This document shows, piece after piece, positions 1 to 5,061 of a DNA stretch of 5,061 nt. The notes under the pieces are model-generated. The model was not told where the DNA came from and did no database searches. It was given only the letters and a program-made list of their open reading frames with translations. The DNA is taken from the IMG/VR virus record IMGVR_UViG_2548876865_000015; one strand, 5' to 3'. Every line of letters starts with the position of its first letter. The stretch's first letter is position 1. Both the position numbers and the translations under genes were made by a program. This stretch comes from a virus (taxonomy: Duplodnaviria > Heunggongvirae > Uroviricota > Caudoviricetes).

Positions 1-1026
1 TTACTTGGAATATTTTCTTGGAATATTTTCAGGTAACGGGACATCAAGTGTTGGTGAAACTTTAACCTTCCTGTCATAGATTAGCACTTGCCCTTCGGTT
101 TTGTGACCAGAGAAAAGTTGCTTATCACGGCTGCTTCCTTCATAGTCTGAAATTCCTTTCGCCTTCAGATCATGAAAGGTGAAGTCGGTTAAAATACCTG
201 AAATTTTTCCAGCACGATTTCTTGCTTCTACCCACATTTCGTTAAAGCCTTTGTACATATATCGGTTGCCGTATTGATTGCTGATCACATAGGCAGATTT
301 TGGTAACTGTTTTGCTTTTTCGATCGCTGCCTGTAATCGTGGACTCCATGCTTTTATCTGTTTTTTTCCGGTTTTCCCTTGCTGGATGAATATCCCGTCG
401 TTTCCAATCTGTTCCCATTTCAGCGATAACACATCGGAAACCCTCGCTGCACACAGATAGGCAATTTCCATTGCGATAAAAACAGGAAGAGGTGCAACGC
501 TTAATACTGCCTGGTATTCTTTGTCGGTTACATATCGTTCGCGGTTTTTGGCCTTGAATTTACTTACACCTGCACATGGGTTAGCCTTGACGTACCCTCG
601 CTCATACCCCCAACTGTAAACACGGGACATACTGCTTTTTTCATGGTTGGCTTGCGTTTTACTCTGCTCCCCTCTTTTGTCCATGTATCGACGGATGTGT
701 TCTGGTTTTATGGAATCCGCTGGTACCTTACCGAATACGGCAAGCAACTTTTTTTGATGTTGCAGATAATCTTTTTGTGTTCTTGGACTAAGGTCACTGT
801 AATAGGCGCTGGCGAGGAATTTTTCCCACAAGCGACCGAATGTCATTGCACGATCGCGATTATTTACAGTTTCCTCATACTTTTTCCATAAAGCAGCTAA
901 ACCATCCTTGATGGCGGTTAGTGTGACAGATTCTCTGGATGTTGGTTTCCATACATAACTATATTTATTTGGGTATACATTTGGAGGTAATTTTTCGTGT
1001 TCAGGATTTTTCCTTCGTCTTCCCAT
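1..1026 (-). CDS. int: Phage tyrosine integrase (lambda Int family), apparently full length, 341 aa
   Basis: Complete ORF from ATG at 1026..1024 to TAA at 3..1. The N-terminus MGRRRKNPEHEKLPPNVY resembles the arm-binding N-terminus of lambda-type Int. Core signatures are readable in the translation: R195 (AARVSD), K218 (QGKTG), H285 (FTFHDLK), H308 (SGHKT) and Y317 (VLIYDRK), with the Tyr nine residues after GHK as in lambda Int. Residue 288 is Lys where box II normally has Arg. Confidence 0.9.
   Translation of the reverse strand: MGRRRKNPEHEKLPPNVYPNKYSYVWKPTSRESVTLTAIKDGLAALWKKYEETVNNRDRAMTFGRLWEKFLASAYYSDLSPRTQKDYLQHQKKLLAVFGKVPADSIKPEHIRRYMDKRGEQSKTQANHEKSSMSRVYSWGYERGYVKANPCAGVSKFKAKNRERYVTDKEYQAVLSVAPLPVFIAMEIAYLCAARVSDVLSLKWEQIGNDGIFIQQGKTGKKQIKAWSPRLQAAIEKAKQLPKSAYVISNQYGNRYMYKGFNEMWVEARNRAGKISGILTDFTFHDLKAKGISDYEGSSRDKQLFSGHKTEGQVLIYDRKVKVSPTLDVPLPENIPRKYSK
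4..30. repeat. Perfect tandem direct repeat, 13-bp unit in two copies (CTTGGAATATTTTC at 4..17 and 17..30)
   Basis: Read directly: ttggaatattttc at 5..17 and again at 18..30. It lies in the last codons of int (…PENIPRKYSK stop), next to where the att site is expected. Confidence 0.9.
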
Positions 1027-1229
1027 CAGATCGCACCAAAATTCGGCTCTACCTCGCGTGGTGGTAAAGTTTTATTGCAGGTAAATAGATCCCGGCTGAC
1101 AATCGGTTTGCCACTACGATTGGTATAGAACGGAAGCCCGTTTTCCATTAACCATTTTCGCTGGTGGCTTGCATATTTGCAGCCCGTTAATATTAGCAAT
1201 TCATCTTCGGTTAAAAATAAGCTGCTCAT
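1026..1229 (-). CDS. Excisionase-like small protein (DUF4224-type), 67 aa
   Basis: ORF from ATG at 1229..1227 to TGA at 1028..1026. Its stop overlaps the int start codon by one base (TGATG), and it sits immediately upstream of int. The stretch LTEDELLILTGCKYASHQRKWLMENGLPF fits the pattern I remember for the phage DUF4224 family. The Xis role is assigned by position and family, not shown. Confidence 0.65.
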   Translation of the reverse strand: MSSLFLTEDELLILTGCKYASHQRKWLMENGLPFYTNRSGKPIVSRDLFTCNKTLPPREVEPNFGAI

Positions 1230-1246
1230 AGCTATATCTCATAACC

Positions 1247-1272
1247 GCCGCTAACTATATACGGTTAGCGGC
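1247..1272 (-). repeat. Perfect 9-bp inverted repeat (hairpin, 8-nt loop) in the intergenic region between the nuclease and the xis-like gene
   Basis: gccgctaac at 1247..1255 and gttagcggc at 1264..1272 are exact reverse complements around the loop tatatacg. No U-tract follows on either strand, so it is not a canonical intrinsic terminator. Confidence 0.6.
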
Positions 1273-1287
1273 AATTAGGGTTGAACA

Positions 1288-3729
1288 TTAAAAATCAGCC
1301 TGACTCGGGATCAGTTTTTGCCAGATAGCTGAAACGTATTTTGCCTGGTAACGAGCGTCATCAAGTGCATTATGGCGCTCACCTTCGAATGGGATAGCAG
1401 TTCTGGCATCGAAGTCTATGGCTTTCCCCAGCTCAACGATTGTGCGTACATCGCGATCGTTGCAGTAGCGCCATGGGCAGGGGATACCCTGTCGTTCGTA
1501 TGAACGGCGTAAAATCACGTTGTCGAAGTTGGCCCCATTACCCCAGACCTGAACAAAAAATTCACCGGAGTTTTCGTCGATAAATTCCCGCAATTGCAGT
1601 AGTGCATCATCTAACGGGATTTCATCGGTCATAATGGCAGACTGCGCTTCACGTGATTGCTTCAGCCACCATTTAATGACGTCACGATCAATGACTCCGC
1701 CAGCAGTATCCAGATCGATGGTCTTGCTAAATTCCGGTCCCATATCTCCGGTTTGTGGATCGAAAAATATTGCGCCTATTGAGATAATCGGGGCATCGGG
1801 ATTTTTTCCCATGGTTTCAAGGTCGATCATCAGATGAATCCCCGCTCTGCTGGTGGATGTGAGCTTATGATGACCATTCACCTTAATTAAGGGATCTGTC
1901 GCCTCGCCAGTTTTATTATCGCTGGCGTGATGCTGATTGCCGCCAGGGTTCTCCTTGTGTGGATGTTCAGCGCCTTCCATTTCCTCCGGATCATTTTCCT
2001 GAACTTCAACCTGATTCTCTTCATCGAATGTTTCCTGGTATGTTGCGTCGCCCATCACCGCGCCACAATCAGGGCAGTTGCCGCCACCGCTCTGACCGCA
2101 GGCGGTGCAGACTTTTTCCGGTTCCTGTTGCGCTACTGGTTCGGATTGTTTCGTTTCTGGCTCGTTTTGTAACGCATTTGGGCTGTTTTGTTCCGCTTTT
2201 TGGTCGTTCCGTTCCGATTCATGCTGGTTCTGGTTCACAGAATCGCGAGTCTGGATCCCCTTGACCCATTTCGGATCATTAGGGTCGCTAATCCCCTCAA
2301 CAAATTCACCACGCGATACAGCAAGTAACTTATCGGCGTCAGGCTGGCTGATATTGGCTGCCTGCATAATTTTGTTTACTTCGTCAGCGGTGACTTTTAC
2401 TTGGTTAGCGGAACTCACCTGCGACTGAGCATCCAGCGACTGCGCGTTCTGGCCATGTTCAGTTGTATCCGGTTCCATTGTTTCAGTTGTTGCCTGTTCA
2501 CCTGCCATTGCGTCAGATGGTTGTGGTTTTTCTTCTTCTGTTTCACGCTCAGTAACCACCTCGCGGTTAATTTCTTCCAGGATATCTTTTTCCGGCGTAT
2601 GCCGGGCAGCTGTGAGAGTTTCCTTGCTGGGGTTCTCGTGATTAGTTTCCGTCAAATAGGCGTTGATATACCCCTGAAGGCGTCCCGGGTAGTGATAAAA
2701 TTCAGGGTGTGCGCTTCGGATAAGTGCAAAAATAGCGGCGCGGGAATAGTCCAGAATACCCGGGGTTGCACGAAGTGCTGCGGACCATTCTTTGAACGGA
2801 CTTTCTTTGTTCAGGACTACTTCTTTTGCGCGACGATAAACGCTGCCCGGAATTTCATAAATATTAAAATCCATCGGAAGTGTGGCTGCTGCAATCTCCA
2901 CATCCAGTGTGTCGAGGGTGTGTACTAAATTCGGATTGCGATCGGTTTTGTTCCCACCGCCAGCATTAGCACCGGAAGCCGTGCGGGTGATGCGTGAAAC
3001 ACGATTTCCTTTCATCCACTCTTTTGTCAGCAGACCCCGATCAGTGTAGTCAGCGTCCAGGTATGCTTCGAAAAAAGCAGTTATTAGTCCCAGGTCTGAA
3101 TTACCAGGATTAGGGAAAACTTTGTCAGTGTCACGAACCAGTTTGTGGAGGTCGCGAATCTCCAGCGAGTCGAGCAGACTGGTTTTATGCGAAATAGCCA
3201 GGGCAGTAACAGCCGGTAGTTCTTCAGCCCGTGCAATGTGTAATGCCTGGAGTTCGTCGCGTGAAACGTGCGTTACTGGTTTTTCGCTGCCGTGTTGAGC
3301 AAGCCAACGAATGGGCAGTTCCTGACCGGAGACAGGCAGAAGCATGCTCTCCTCAATCTCAGTCATGTCTTCGCCGTTGATGTTGGTATTGTCAGTGCTG
3401 GCTGGTTTGTCCTGAACAGAGGGGGAAGGGCCGATAAATGTCATTGTGATGCCATCTTTCCCGCCTTTTTCATAGCGGTTGCAGAATTCAGTATCAAACA
3501 CGCCTTCTGGCGGAAGGTCGTCAACAACGGGCAAATTGACGCGGACGGGTTTTTTAAAGTCGTCTTCATCATAATCGTTGTCATCCATTGCGGTAATGCA
3601 GCGGGAGATTGCAACAGATAATTTTTTTGTTGTAGTCCAGTAAAAACCACCTTTAATTCCCAGGCGTTTTCTTACTTTGTCATTTTTTGCTTCGCAATAT
3701 AGTGCAAATTCTTCTTTATCAGTGCTCAT
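1288..3729 (-). CDS. Large prophage nuclease: RecE (exodeoxyribonuclease VIII)-like N-terminal region, acidic linker, zinc ribbon, and C-terminal DEDDh (DnaQ-like) 3'-5' exonuclease domain; 813 aa
   Basis: ORF from ATG at 3729..3727 to TAA at 1290..1288, with a GAGG Shine-Dalgarno 9 nt upstream of the ATG. The three DEDDh motifs are directly readable in the C-terminal translation: Exo I IHLMIDLETMG (D636, E638), Exo II VWGNGANFDNVIL (D736), Exo III HNALDDARYQAKY (H786, D791). Residues about 385-620 are acidic and Gln/Glu/Thr-rich, and contain CTACGQSGGGNCPDCG (C541, C544, C552, C555). The N-terminal roughly 380 aa resemble, from memory, the non-catalytic N-terminal part of Rac RecE and the truncated Qin YdfE. 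Confidence 0.85.
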   Translation of the reverse strand: MSTDKEEFALYCEAKNDKVRKRLGIKGGFYWTTTKKLSVAISRCITAMDDNDYDEDDFKKPVRVNLPVVDDLPPEGVFDTEFCNRYEKGGKDGITMTFIGPSPSVQDKPASTDNTNINGEDMTEIEESMLLPVSGQELPIRWLAQHGSEKPVTHVSRDELQALHIARAEELPAVTALAISHKTSLLDSLEIRDLHKLVRDTDKVFPNPGNSDLGLITAFFEAYLDADYTDRGLLTKEWMKGNRVSRITRTASGANAGGGNKTDRNPNLVHTLDTLDVEIAAATLPMDFNIYEIPGSVYRRAKEVVLNKESPFKEWSAALRATPGILDYSRAAIFALIRSAHPEFYHYPGRLQGYINAYLTETNHENPSKETLTAARHTPEKDILEEINREVVTERETEEEKPQPSDAMAGEQATTETMEPDTTEHGQNAQSLDAQSQVSSANQVKVTADEVNKIMQAANISQPDADKLLAVSRGEFVEGISDPNDPKWVKGIQTRDSVNQNQHESERNDQKAEQNSPNALQNEPETKQSEPVAQQEPEKVCTACGQSGGGNCPDCGAVMGDATYQETFDEENQVEVQENDPEEMEGAEHPHKENPGGNQHHASDNKTGEATDPLIKVNGHHKLTSTSRAGIHLMIDLETMGKNPDAPIISIGAIFFDPQTGDMGPEFSKTIDLDTAGGVIDRDVIKWWLKQSREAQSAIMTDEIPLDDALLQLREFIDENSGEFFVQVWGNGANFDNVILRRSYERQGIPCPWRYCNDRDVRTIVELGKAIDFDARTAIPFEGERHNALDDARYQAKYVSAIWQKLIPSQADF
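1330..1848 (-). other. DEDDh 3'-5' exonuclease domain (protein residues about 628-800) inside the 813-aa CDS
   Basis: Motif codons map to D636 at 1824..1822, E638 at 1818..1816, D736 at 1524..1522, H786 at 1374..1372 and D791 at 1359..1357. Spacing and order match DnaQ-like DEDDh exonucleases. Confidence 0.8.
2065..2109 (-). other. CxxC-x7-CxxC zinc-ribbon-like motif inside the 813-aa CDS
   Basis: The translation CTACGQSGGGNCPDCG was confirmed by reverse-complementing 2065..2109. It sits inside the low-complexity linker between the N-terminal region and the exonuclease domain. Confidence 0.6.
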
Positions 3730-3822
3730 TATTGGTAAACCTCATCACAGATTTAAGGGTGAACAAATCTCTGCCATTGCTGACATATAAGAATGAAACT
3801 GGATATTTATTACGGTGCTGTT

Positions 3823-4014
3823 TTAAAATCCTGCCGGGATTTCGTTATTATCCTGGTGAATAACTTTATCGACCGGATAACAGTTGCCTGGAATTTTCTG
3901 TTCGGTTGCTGCTGCCATACATTCCTGCATTGTTCTGTGAACACTGACTGCAATATCAACTGGCTCTCCGGAAACAAGAAAAACCGTCAGAATAAGTGCA
4001 AATACTGGATTCAT
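3823..4014 (-). CDS. ydfD: YdfD-like small protein, 63 aa, with N-terminal hydrophobic segment (Qin YdfD is reported to induce lysis)
   Basis: I favour the ATG at 4014..4012 because it overlaps the upstream stop as ATGA and has an AAGGA Shine-Dalgarno 8 nt upstream; the longest ORF starts at 4068 but would overlap the upstream gene by 58 nt. Stop is TAA at 3825..3823. The product MNPVFALILTVFLVSGEPVDIAVSV... has a hydrophobic N-terminus. Identity with E. coli K-12 YdfD is recalled from memory and needs BLASTP. Confidence 0.6.
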   Translation of the reverse strand: MNPVFALILTVFLVSGEPVDIAVSVHRTMQECMAAATEQKIPGNCYPVDKVIHQDNNEIPAGF

Positions 4015-4199
4015 TGTGCACATCCTTTTGGCATCAGACGTAAACGGGCCAGCATTGAAACAATGCATACTTTATTTAATAACTCCCGTTCGTGTTTTCT
4101 TTTGTTAATGGCATCTTCAGTAAATACAGGATTACTGATAGTGACACCAATTTCAAAACAACCTTCAGACGTATTAACGTTTGGTAATAACGTTTTCAT
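4011..4199 (-). CDS. dicB: DicB-like cell-division inhibitor, 62 aa
   Basis: ORF from ATG at 4199..4197 to TGA at 4013..4011, with a GAGGA Shine-Dalgarno 7 nt upstream that overlaps the stop of the preceding gene. The product MKTLLPNVNTSEGCFEIGVTISNPVFTEDAINKRK...MLARLRLMPKGCAQ matches my memory of K-12 DicB (62 aa) almost residue for residue, and it lies directly upstream of the YdfD-like gene as in Qin. Confidence 0.7.
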   Translation of the reverse strand: MKTLLPNVNTSEGCFEIGVTISNPVFTEDAINKRKHERELLNKVCIVSMLARLRLMPKGCAQ

Positions 4200-4209
4200 T
4201 ATCGCGTCC

Positions 4210-4767
4210 TCAACAATGAATTTTTAGTAATTGCTCCACAGTCATATTTTTAATTGCGCTCCGGTTTACAAGAGTCCAGCCTTGTTTCTCCAGATAAAAC
4301 TGGAAGGTATCCAGGGTGCAGACCATTGCACCATCAGGAACGGTTTCAGTGAATTTGATATTGCCGTGTTCGTCGAGACGGATAACCAGGGTACGTCCGT
4401 CCCCGTGAATCATTTTGTCGGGAGACGGGGCGTTATTCTGGCGCAGTTCTTTCTCCATGCGATCGAACTCAGCGATGTAGGCTTCTTTAAATGCAGCGGC
4501 TTTTTTGCCGGTGAAACCCATCACCAGGAAAACGAAGCCGTTTTTGGTGATTTGGTACATAGGGAGTTTGCGCCCGGTTGAGTCGGTATATTCACTGGGC
4601 GAAAAATTTCGCTCAGTGAATTCCGCTGAACAGTCTAGACGTGAAATTTTTGCCAGTACATCTTTGTGTGGTTTCCGGAAATACTCGGCAACAGCTAAAG
4701 AGGATGTAACAGCACGCCCATTGGCGATAGTAATTTCAGGGTGAGAAAGGGCAGGGATAGTAGCCAT
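4210..4767 (-). CDS. Rha-family phage regulatory protein with an uncharacterised C-terminal region of about 80 aa; 185 aa from the favoured start
   Basis: Stop is TGA at 4212..4210. The Rha signature is clear: RAVTSSLAVAEYFRKPHKDVLAKISRL ... PMYQITKNGFVFLVMGFTGKKAAAFKEAYIAEFDRME. I favour the ATG at 4767..4765 (MATIPALSHPEITIANGRAVTSS) because GGAGG at 4780..4776 lies 8 nt upstream and Rha domains normally sit at the extreme N-terminus. Alternative starts are 4794 and 4782. The longest ORF runs in frame to the window edge at 5061 (283 aa) and may be what an automated annotation calls. Confidence 0.7.
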   Translation of the reverse strand: MATIPALSHPEITIANGRAVTSSLAVAEYFRKPHKDVLAKISRLDCSAEFTERNFSPSEYTDSTGRKLPMYQITKNGFVFLVMGFTGKKAAAFKEAYIAEFDRMEKELRQNNAPSPDKMIHGDGRTLVIRLDEHGNIKFTETVPDGAMVCTLDTFQFYLEKQGWTLVNRSAIKNMTVEQLLKIHC

Positions 4768-4797
4768 GATGGCAGCCTCCATGATGAATTTCATTAA

Positions 4798-4903
4798 CTC
4801 ACCACCAGAGGTAGCAATCTCATGGGTGGTGAGACGCACAGGGTTGCTACAACCGGTCATCATGGAACCCGGCCAGCCTTGCGGCTGCCCTGCACGCCCC
4901 ACC
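4798..4903 (-). promoter_or_regulatory. Candidate structured RNA leader upstream of the Rha gene, with mutually exclusive helices
   Basis: On the minus-sense RNA, GGUGGGGCGUGCAGGG (from 4903..4888) can pair with CCCUGUGCGUCUCACC (from 4843..4828) over 16 contiguous base pairs: 12 Watson-Crick and 4 G-U. The same pairs are C-A mismatches on the plus sense. The enclosed loop holds a 5-bp hairpin capped by a GCAA tetraloop (4887..4874). The 3' part CUCACCACC (4833..4825) can instead pair perfectly with GGUGGUGAG (4806..4798), which is the Shine-Dalgarno-like sequence 3 nt upstream of the ATG at 4794. Confidence 0.3.
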
Positions 4904-4931
4904 ATAATCTGAATGTGGCTGTGCATTACGC

Positions 4932-4956
4932 ATAAAAAAACCGCCTGAGCGCGGTT
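4932..4956 (-). terminator. Weak candidate intrinsic terminator (short hairpin followed by a U-run) on the minus strand
   Basis: Minus-sense AACCGC-GCUCAG-GCGGUU followed by UUUUUAUG. The stem has only 4 G-C pairs plus 2 A-U pairs and a 6-nt loop, so it is marginal. It falls inside the N-terminal extension of the longest Rha ORF. Confidence 0.25.
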
Positions 4957-5061
4957 ATGCGCCATGATGAACATCGGGGTAGCAATCCCGGCACCCGCTT
5001 TATGAGGTGCAGGTGCACTATAATTCCACCCGTTCTGGTTTTCAATAGCTACATTCAACAT

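Follow-up and report, generated by a model that had tools for sequence, protein, structure and literature searches.

A probable riboregulated Rha antirepressor cassette between dicF and dicB-ydfD in a Qin/Rac-like prophage

Among the products of cryptic prophages that affect the division and metabolism of the host and its susceptibility to phages, the cell-division inhibitor DicB and the small RNA DicF are the standard examples, and the regulation of dicB and dicF has so far been worked out only in Escherichia coli K-12, with its single DicA-repressed promoter. We analyzed a stretch of Caudoviricetes DNA of 5,061 nucleotides (nt) (IMG/VR record IMGVR_UViG_2548876865_000015; the window, below, is this whole stretch) in which dicB and the lysis gene ydfD lie behind a gene of the Rha family, the latter being preceded by a predicted promoter and two predicted regulatory RNAs. 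All substantial open reading frames (ORFs) of the window are on the minus strand, in the order long ORF (5061..4210, ending with the Rha gene), dicB, ydfD, exonuclease, excisionase-like gene and integrase; coordinates are collected in Table 1.

Table 1. Genes, predicted RNAs and sequence elements of the window, in the direction of transcription
Feature	Position	Strand	Basis or remark
Predicted sigma-70 promoter, TTGAAA-17-nt spacer-TATAGT	5017..5045	minus	10/12 consensus positions, best site in the region
N-terminal extension of the annotated 283-residue ORF, 98 residues	4768..5061	minus	Pfam Phage_ASH, 58.9 bits
IsrK-type small RNA with decoy/target sites a1 and b1 and terminator	4934..5010	minus	Rfam RF01394, 64.7 bits (gathering 50)
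a1 site UUGCUAC in IsrK	4985-4979	minus	complementary to a'
b1 site UCAUCAUGG in IsrK	4970-4962	minus	complementary to C4 loop b'
Predicted intrinsic terminator of IsrK, hairpin and U7	4956-4934	minus	terminator scan
C4-type antisense RNA, equivalent to P4 CI / Salmonella STnc1160	4822..4909	minus	Rfam RF01695, 77.9 bits
C4 recognition loop b' CCAUGAUGA	4865-4857	minus	complementary to b1 and b2
C4 single-stranded segment a' GUAGCAA	4850-4844	minus	complementary to a1 and a2
a2 target site UUGCUAC	4811..4817	minus	complementary to a'
b2 target site UCAUCAUGG	4787-4779	minus	complementary to b'; overlaps the Rha Shine-Dalgarno GGAGG (4780-4776)
Rha-family putative antirepressor, 185 residues, cassette cargo	4210..4767	minus	ATG 4767, TGA 4212..4210
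Native dicB leader kept downstream of the insertion	4200..4224	minus	identical to the K-12 dicB leader; right-hand cassette junction
dicB, cell-division inhibitor, 62 residues	4011..4199	minus	Pfam DicB (PF05358), 135.4 bits, positions 1-62 of 62
ydfD, DUF1482 lysis protein, 63 residues	3823..4014	minus	Pfam DUF1482 (PF07358), 87.9 bits
Exonuclease, 813 residues	1288-3729	minus	Pfam Exonuc_VIII and Rv2179c-like
DUF4224 excisionase-like gene	1026-1229	minus	Pfam DUF4224
Tyrosine integrase	1-1026	minus	Pfam Phage_integrase

A preliminary description of this DNA, made from the letters alone, had recognized the 62- and 63-residue products as DicB and YdfD, and BLASTP against the K-12 proteins bears this out: 60/62 residues of DicB are identical (97%; E 1e-45) and 56/63 of YdfD (89%; E 4e-43). 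Judged by these alignments, both are intact, ordinary orthologues of the K-12 proteins. K-12 DicB is known for MinC-dependent inhibition of FtsZ rings and for ManYZ-dependent phage exclusion (PMC10448788); the 97% identity is what suggests the same function for the window protein. The layout described around the two genes is also present, with the dicB stop overlapping the ydfD ATG in an ATGA (4014..4011) and the TGA of the Rha gene overlapping the GAGGA Shine-Dalgarno sequence (SD) of dicB (4211..4207), 7 nt before the dicB ATG. The gap between Rha and dicB measures 10 nt, and neither DicF nor a terminator was found between the two genes, the Rfam search, blastn-short and the terminator scan all being empty there, as had been claimed.

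The promoter and the two RNAs (4822-5045) fall just outside the coordinates treated in the preliminary description and went unnoticed in it. The -10 hexamer of the predicted promoter ends 7 nt before the first nucleotide of IsrK, and the C4 match (gathering score 45) covers the full model, positions 1-87; the minimum-free-energy fold of the C4-type RNA reproduces the family structure, and its 3' end carries CACCACCC. Its two pairing segments, a' and b', are complementary to one set of sites inside IsrK and to a second set ahead of the Rha gene, where b2 overlaps the SD lying 8 nt before ATG 4767. The promoter is nearly invariant among 31 unique Rha-type cassettes (entropy <=0.11) and the IsrK terminator has a leaky-looking sequence; both elements come from consensus prediction, not from transcript mapping. 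The antirepressors of the Gifsy prophages are under LexA control. No LexA box (CTGT-N8-ACAG, one mismatch) was found near the cassette promoter, and the contig L009 (GCA_023185895.1), which holds the whole window with 0 mismatches, has 4 matches to this pattern against 3.76 expected.

The complementarity between C4 and its targets is maintained through co-variation. In an alignment of four E. coli cassette variants (A3) the a and b sequences differ and all three copies change together in each variant, with the GAGG..ATGGCTACTA context of the Rha start (SD and ATG) invariant. On a larger scale, 86 unique leaders, drawn from a scan of viral contigs and from fetched loci, contain 16 a' and 30 b' sequences in 37 specificity combinations. 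Their cognate pairing total was 2730, against 1849.5 +/- 30.3 for shuffled C4 assignments, and 0/300 shuffles reached 2730; this test was restricted by position, an unrestricted complementarity search having inflated the non-cognate scores. In every one of the 37 specificity classes b2 abuts the Shine-Dalgarno sequence of the downstream gene. Such three-way co-variation of predicted pairing (a1/a'/a2 and b1/b'/b2) is the defining behavior of the C4 system of P1/P7 immI. Among the viral-contig loci L014-L133 the a' and b' specificities also appear to reassort independently, the same b' occurring with different a' and vice versa, and the leader is common to at least three cargo N-termini.

In P1/P7 immI (a1 b1 - c4 - a2 b2 - icd - ant), as here, an antisense RNA with two loops faces two target sets, one of the sets, the downstream one, lies over a ribosome-binding site, co-variation gives rise to many heteroimmune specificities, and an antirepressor is linked to a cell-division inhibitor. 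The mature C4 of P1 is released from the operon transcript by RNase P processing. The two systems differ in that a1 and b1 here sit inside a discrete terminated small RNA, the icd ORF, which in P1 lies between c4 and ant and is coupled to ant in translation, has no separate counterpart (the sole open frame between C4 and Rha is the Rha frame), the division inhibitor dicB comes after the antirepressor, and the element is a lambdoid rather than a plasmid prophage.

The isrK locus of the Salmonella prophage Gifsy-1 (PisrK-isrK-orf45/STnc1160-anrP-isrJ; Hershko-Shalev et al., 2016, PMC4825925) aligns with the window leader and scores 79.3 bits for isrK, 69 for C4 and 48.1 for c4-a1b1 in Rfam. Experiments on it showed that the isrK promoter drives the downstream antirepressor gene by reading through the IsrK terminator; the read-through mRNA is translationally silent and is activated by short IsrK in trans, and a processed RNA, STnc1160, arises from the region called C4 by Rfam (PMC4825925). 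Shared with the window is the succession of promoter (predicted here), IsrK, leaky (here leaky-looking) terminator and C4-like RNA, followed by an antirepressor gene with a C4-loop-complementary site before its SD, and the C-terminal domains of the two cargo proteins are related. Their N-domains, in contrast, are Rha here and ORF6N in AnrP, and we rejected the Rha protein as an AnrP orthologue on this ground and because BLASTP similarity was weak and limited to the C-terminus (E 0.007). In further contrast to Gifsy-1, the leader ORF is fused in frame to the cargo, whereas orf45 ends in AUGA; the cargo is followed not by isrJ or a terminator but by dicB-ydfD in the same operon, and the whole lies in the early-left operon rather than downstream of Q.

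In P4 immunity (CI RNA, with seqA and seqC as targets) the RNA repressor and its upstream target are likewise embedded in an annotated Phage_ASH-family ORF, and the Rfam C4 and isrK models detect relatives of P4 CI and seqA inside “Bro-network” ORFs, Phage_ASH among them (PMC10111431). According to the summary in PMC4825925, P4 CI works by inducing the termination of transcription, whereas the downstream target here overlaps the SD, pointing to translational control. By its predicted parts, the cassette is of the P1 immI/Gifsy-1 isrK type of riboregulated antirepressor: all components are of known kinds, and the position seems new.

The Rha protein itself carries a Phage_pRha domain (PF09669; 106.7 bits against a cut-off of 29.9, residues 21-106). 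The start of its gene is annotated otherwise: gene callers and the Prokaryotic Genome Annotation Pipeline (PGAP) give a 283-residue protein from ATG 5061 (ORF 4210-5061) and not the 4767 start. Among the 31 cassettes the per-codon-position entropy downstream of ATG 4767 is 0.31/0.27/0.70 and 0.42/0.28/0.69, while the upstream values are flat (0.20/0.25/0.27 and 0.34/0.41/0.38) and sequence variability there is concentrated in the a/b RNA-pairing patches. Because third-codon-position variability appears only downstream of 4767, this is the functional start of Rha, in line with the choice made in the preliminary description; the pattern indicates that purifying selection acts on Rha downstream of this point. 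The extension upstream is best read as mainly an RNA leader that also holds the promoter.

A rival reading takes the 283-residue “Ash-Rha” protein to be a real product, alone or beside the RNAs. We regard this as unlikely. The long frame over the RNAs is open in 31/31 unique variants; polymorphic stops number 0 in it and 13 and 11 in the two alternative frames. A Pfam family, Phage_ASH, exists for the extension, and in the alignment ATG 5061 falls where the dicB ATG stands, each preceded by the same conserved leader. P1, moreover, makes two in-frame Ant isoforms. On this reading, translation of transcripts from the upstream DicA-controlled promoter through IsrK and C4 would melt the terminator and the C4 structure, bypass the switch and yield a longer Rha isoform. 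Set against this, the 98 extra codons have no third-position periodicity and vary in the RNA pairing patches, the ORF contains the cassette promoter, and with other types of cargo the frame of the cargo gene closes within 9-81 nt ahead of its ATG. Gifsy-1 orf45, too, is conserved in nucleotide sequence and variable in amino-acid sequence (PMC4825925). The long frame thus appears to be kept open without constraint on its amino acids.

The boundaries of the cassette were placed by comparison with prophages that lack it. Window positions 1-4224 are 99.7-99.8% identical to many cassette-free E. coli prophages (int-xis-exo-ydfD-dicB, no Rha), the identity stops at 4224, and in the K-12 alignment homology resumes at AAAATTCATTGTTGAGGACGCGATAATG. 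The end of the Rha gene, its last codons and the TGA, therefore comes from the native dicB leader; the Rha C-terminus reads ...EQLLKIHC with TGA before dicB and ...EQLLSIK with TAA upstream of kilR in Rac-like prophages. On the left, the junction falls in the dicF-dicB spacer, about 38 nt past the right end of the window, which together with the right junction at 4224 gives a cassette of about 875 base pairs (bp). The insertion point is separated by 25 nt from the dicB ATG and by about 150 nt from the DicF terminator upstream. The two junctions (L009:5963-6000; window 4200-4224) are diverged copies of one dicB-leader segment, CAAAGTTCACTTCGGTGA... and AAAATTCATTGTTGA..., and, with the alignment of ATG 5061 to the dicB ATG, this suggests module exchange by recombination within the conserved leader. 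In strain C325 a “partial DicB” is annotated by PGAP ahead of the cassette, and we rejected a duplicated dicB 5' end as its explanation: the annotation sits on ordinary dicF-dicB spacer, and the left junction holds only the diverged copy, of about 40 nt, of the dicB leader. The spacer is conserved in Qin- and Rac-like prophages and has sub-threshold matches to the Rfam family STnc100, at 29-42 bits against a gathering score of 47 (L001:4433-4642; L002:10358-10499; L004:5847-6016).

The preliminary description suggested that Rha, DicB and YdfD are co-expressed as a module, headed by the Rha gene instead of the dicA-ydfABC-dicF context of Qin. Read strictly, this would be a protein-only module that replaces that context and whose three genes are deliberately coupled in translation. 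Tight packing, with the Rha stop on the dicB SD and the ATGA overlap of dicB and ydfD, would fit such a module. The window also holds no DicF, including within the 3' end of the Rha gene, by Rfam at E<=10 or by blastn-short (which gave only 8-9-nt chance words), and the same Rfam model finds K-12 dicF at 76.7 bits. The missing context, however, lies just outside the window. In L009 a DicF identical to that of K-12 (53/53; 76.7 bits) is found 184 nt beyond the right end, and upstream of it are ydfC, ydfA, a HigBA pair and a 130-residue repressor of DicA-like architecture with 22% identity to DicA over its full length; the near-identical contig L007, with its one mismatch to the window, has a ydfB call, and L009 has none. 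All the other Rha-type loci that were scanned with Rfam (L002-L008, L010, L011) likewise have DicF or a DicF variant (36-77 bits) on the upstream side of the cassette. Rha therefore does not replace the Qin context, and DicF, on these alignments, is displaced by the cassette, not replaced. With homology resuming at 4224, the stop/SD overlap is a by-product of the junction and not a designed coupling; the packing of the three genes, with no terminator or DicF between them, is supported. A promoter of its own and two regulatory RNAs, furthermore, are predicted to precede Rha. We consider a replacement module highly improbable.

The variants of DicF lie at L003:9059-9107, L006:5756-5804 and L005:6014-6063 and in L008, L010 and L011:5753-5804, at 36-61 bits against 76.7 for K-12, some of them under the Rfam gathering score of 48. 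Their seed regions differ, and their targets might differ too.

Our preferred reading, to which we assign a probability of roughly 0.7, is that a riboregulated antirepressor cassette of about 875 bp has been inserted into an early-left operon of the dicBF type, belonging to a Qin/Rac-like lambdoid prophage. Compared with the K-12 Qin operon (dicA/dicC, ydfABC, dicF, dicB, ydfD, ydfE), DicF is identical in L009 and the dicF-dicB spacer, the 25-nt dicB leader and the ATGA overlap of dicB and ydfD are the same, besides the conserved DicB and YdfD. The locus differs from K-12 in the cassette, with its predicted internal promoter, between dicF and dicB, in the repressor, and in the 813-residue exonuclease, unrelated to YdfE, that follows ydfD ahead of an intact prophage end (xis, int). 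In the K-12 dicBF operon no internal promoter was found (PMC10448788), and to this extent the view that regulation here reaches beyond the K-12 model holds.

The sequence itself shows which parts are present and in what order, that the complementarity co-varies and places b2 on the SD, that Rha is under selection, and that no terminator is predicted between Rha and dicB. By analogy with P1 immI and Gifsy-1 isrK, we infer that the promoter is active, that the terminator is partly read through, that C4 is processed, and that C4 represses and IsrK restores the translation of Rha. Most transcripts initiated at this promoter would end as short IsrK; those that read through would carry C4, whose loops a' and b' would pair with a2 and b2 and block Rha translation, and IsrK, carrying the same sites as a1 and b1, would compete for C4 or refold the leader, turning Rha translation on. 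The same read-through mRNA would run on into dicB and ydfD. As there is no terminator between Rha and dicB, any read-through must enter dicB, and dicB-ydfD would thereby gain a second, RNA-gated expression route to division inhibition and lysis, absent from K-12 and additional to the DicA-repressed upstream promoter that also makes DicF.

Rha would in this scheme act as an antirepressor on short, non-cleavable repressors of the DicA/Gifsy type. Its putative assignment draws on the match of residues 100-172 to PHROG anti-repressor families, including phrog_2379 (AnrP family), on a C-terminal domain common to Gifsy-1 AnrP at profile level, on the local repressors, which are short (130-166 residues) and have no peptidase domain match, and on the relief of K-12 DicA itself by an antirepressor (PMC10448788). 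Otherwise unrelated short repressors beside the cassette (L009:3511-3903; L010:3324-3824; L011:4756-5163; L004:6701-7120) share a C-terminal motif, L..LF/L..LP.SEQ-like, as does K-12 DicA; this motif could be a common contact site for antirepressors.

Several points weigh against this interpretation. The promoter, the leakiness of the terminator, the processing of C4 and a transcript shared with dicB are all predicted. A pure-RNA view of the leader does not account for an ORF that stays open in all 31 variants. The orf45 of Gifsy-1, ending in AUGA, is without counterpart here, where the frame of an AUG at 4905 runs on into Rha without a stop, and the Rha N-domain is not homologous to that of AnrP, the similarity of the two proteins being confined to the C-terminus. 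An identical Rha protein, moreover, occurs beside three unrelated repressor types, and strict cognate specificity between Rha and repressor is therefore unlikely. Finally, dicB keeps its own SD, so that translational dependence on Rha is not required.

The cassette is present at >=80% coverage in 387/5426 complete E. coli genomes, in 248 of which it occurs together with dicB-ydfD, annotated as “Rha family - DicB - DUF1482”, and an exact-sequence look-up lists the exact 283-residue ORF in 1787 index blocks. In Rac-like prophages the same IsrK-C4-Rha cassette lies directly upstream of kilR-ydaE-recE or ydaE (L004:4714-5830; L005:4690-5830), with DicF and the same spacer upstream there as well. 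A biased sample of loci has DicB after a Rha-type cargo in 27 cases (26 with YdfD too), KilR in 12 and YdaE in 8. With other cargos the same leader is carried by many Stx phages, by mEp460 and SfV in their rightward operon, and by Gifsy-1 downstream of Q. The phage mEp460 has been cited as a functional phage bearing dicB/dicF, and we set it aside: the isrK/C4 leader of its reference genome is in the rightward operon before a different antirepressor, and not beside dicB.

It is conceivable, if somewhat unlikely, that the cassette is a self-contained, moron-like passenger with no functional tie to dicB-ydfD, its adjacency arising from modular recombination at the conserved leader and the upstream promoter and DicF terminator alone governing dicB-ydfD expression. 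The occurrence of the leader with other cargos in Gifsy-1, mEp460 and SfV would be expected of such a passenger, as would the native SD retained by dicB and a junction that falls in a leader conserved among Qin- and Rac-like prophages. Read-through, however, would have no terminator to stop it before dicB, and a division inhibitor repeatedly comes next after a Rha-type cassette, dicB in 27 loci and kilR in 12. A further extension of our preferred reading, that C4/IsrK-gated Rha cassettes have repeatedly been captured at the conserved leader between DicF and division inhibitors (dicB-ydfD, kilR) and that the long frame is functional, strikes us as decidedly doubtful. Ribosomes on transcripts from the upstream promoter would then erase the IsrK terminator and the C4 fold, so that the switch would act only on cassette-promoter transcripts; the locus would be a lambdoid counterpart of P1 c4-icd-ant, in which one RNA switch co-gates antirepressor release and division block.

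No description of a C4/IsrK cassette inside the dicBF operon was found in the literature searched, and this placement seems undescribed, though it is common and already annotated at gene level. About 5% of complete E. coli genomes (248/5426) have dicB-ydfD behind an extra predicted promoter and a predicted RNA-based immunity switch, which would control a putative antirepressor as well. If the route is active, filamentation and phage exclusion by DicB, lysis by YdfD and prophage derepression could respond to signals and to co-resident prophages in ways beyond the K-12 model. For annotation, the first third of a widely annotated 283-residue “Rha family” protein overlies a predicted promoter and two structured RNAs and has no coding signature. 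The main value of these observations lies in a corrected picture of the locus and in a testable extra layer of dicB regulation.

The remainder of the window, positions 1..3729 on the minus strand downstream of ydfD, is the left end of the prophage. The 813-residue protein after ydfD combines an N-terminal Exonuc_VIII (RecE) segment with an Rv2179c-like 3'-5' exonuclease domain; it holds the same position as YdfE in Qin, but we rejected it as an intact K-12 ydfE, for BLASTP gave no similarity between the two (best E 4.3). On the far side of the operon, in L009:3950-4614, the HigB toxin and its helix-turn-helix antitoxin are encoded between the repressor and ydfA on the opposite strand. An ORF of 144 residues runs antisense to dicB and ydfD on the plus strand (window 3793-4227).

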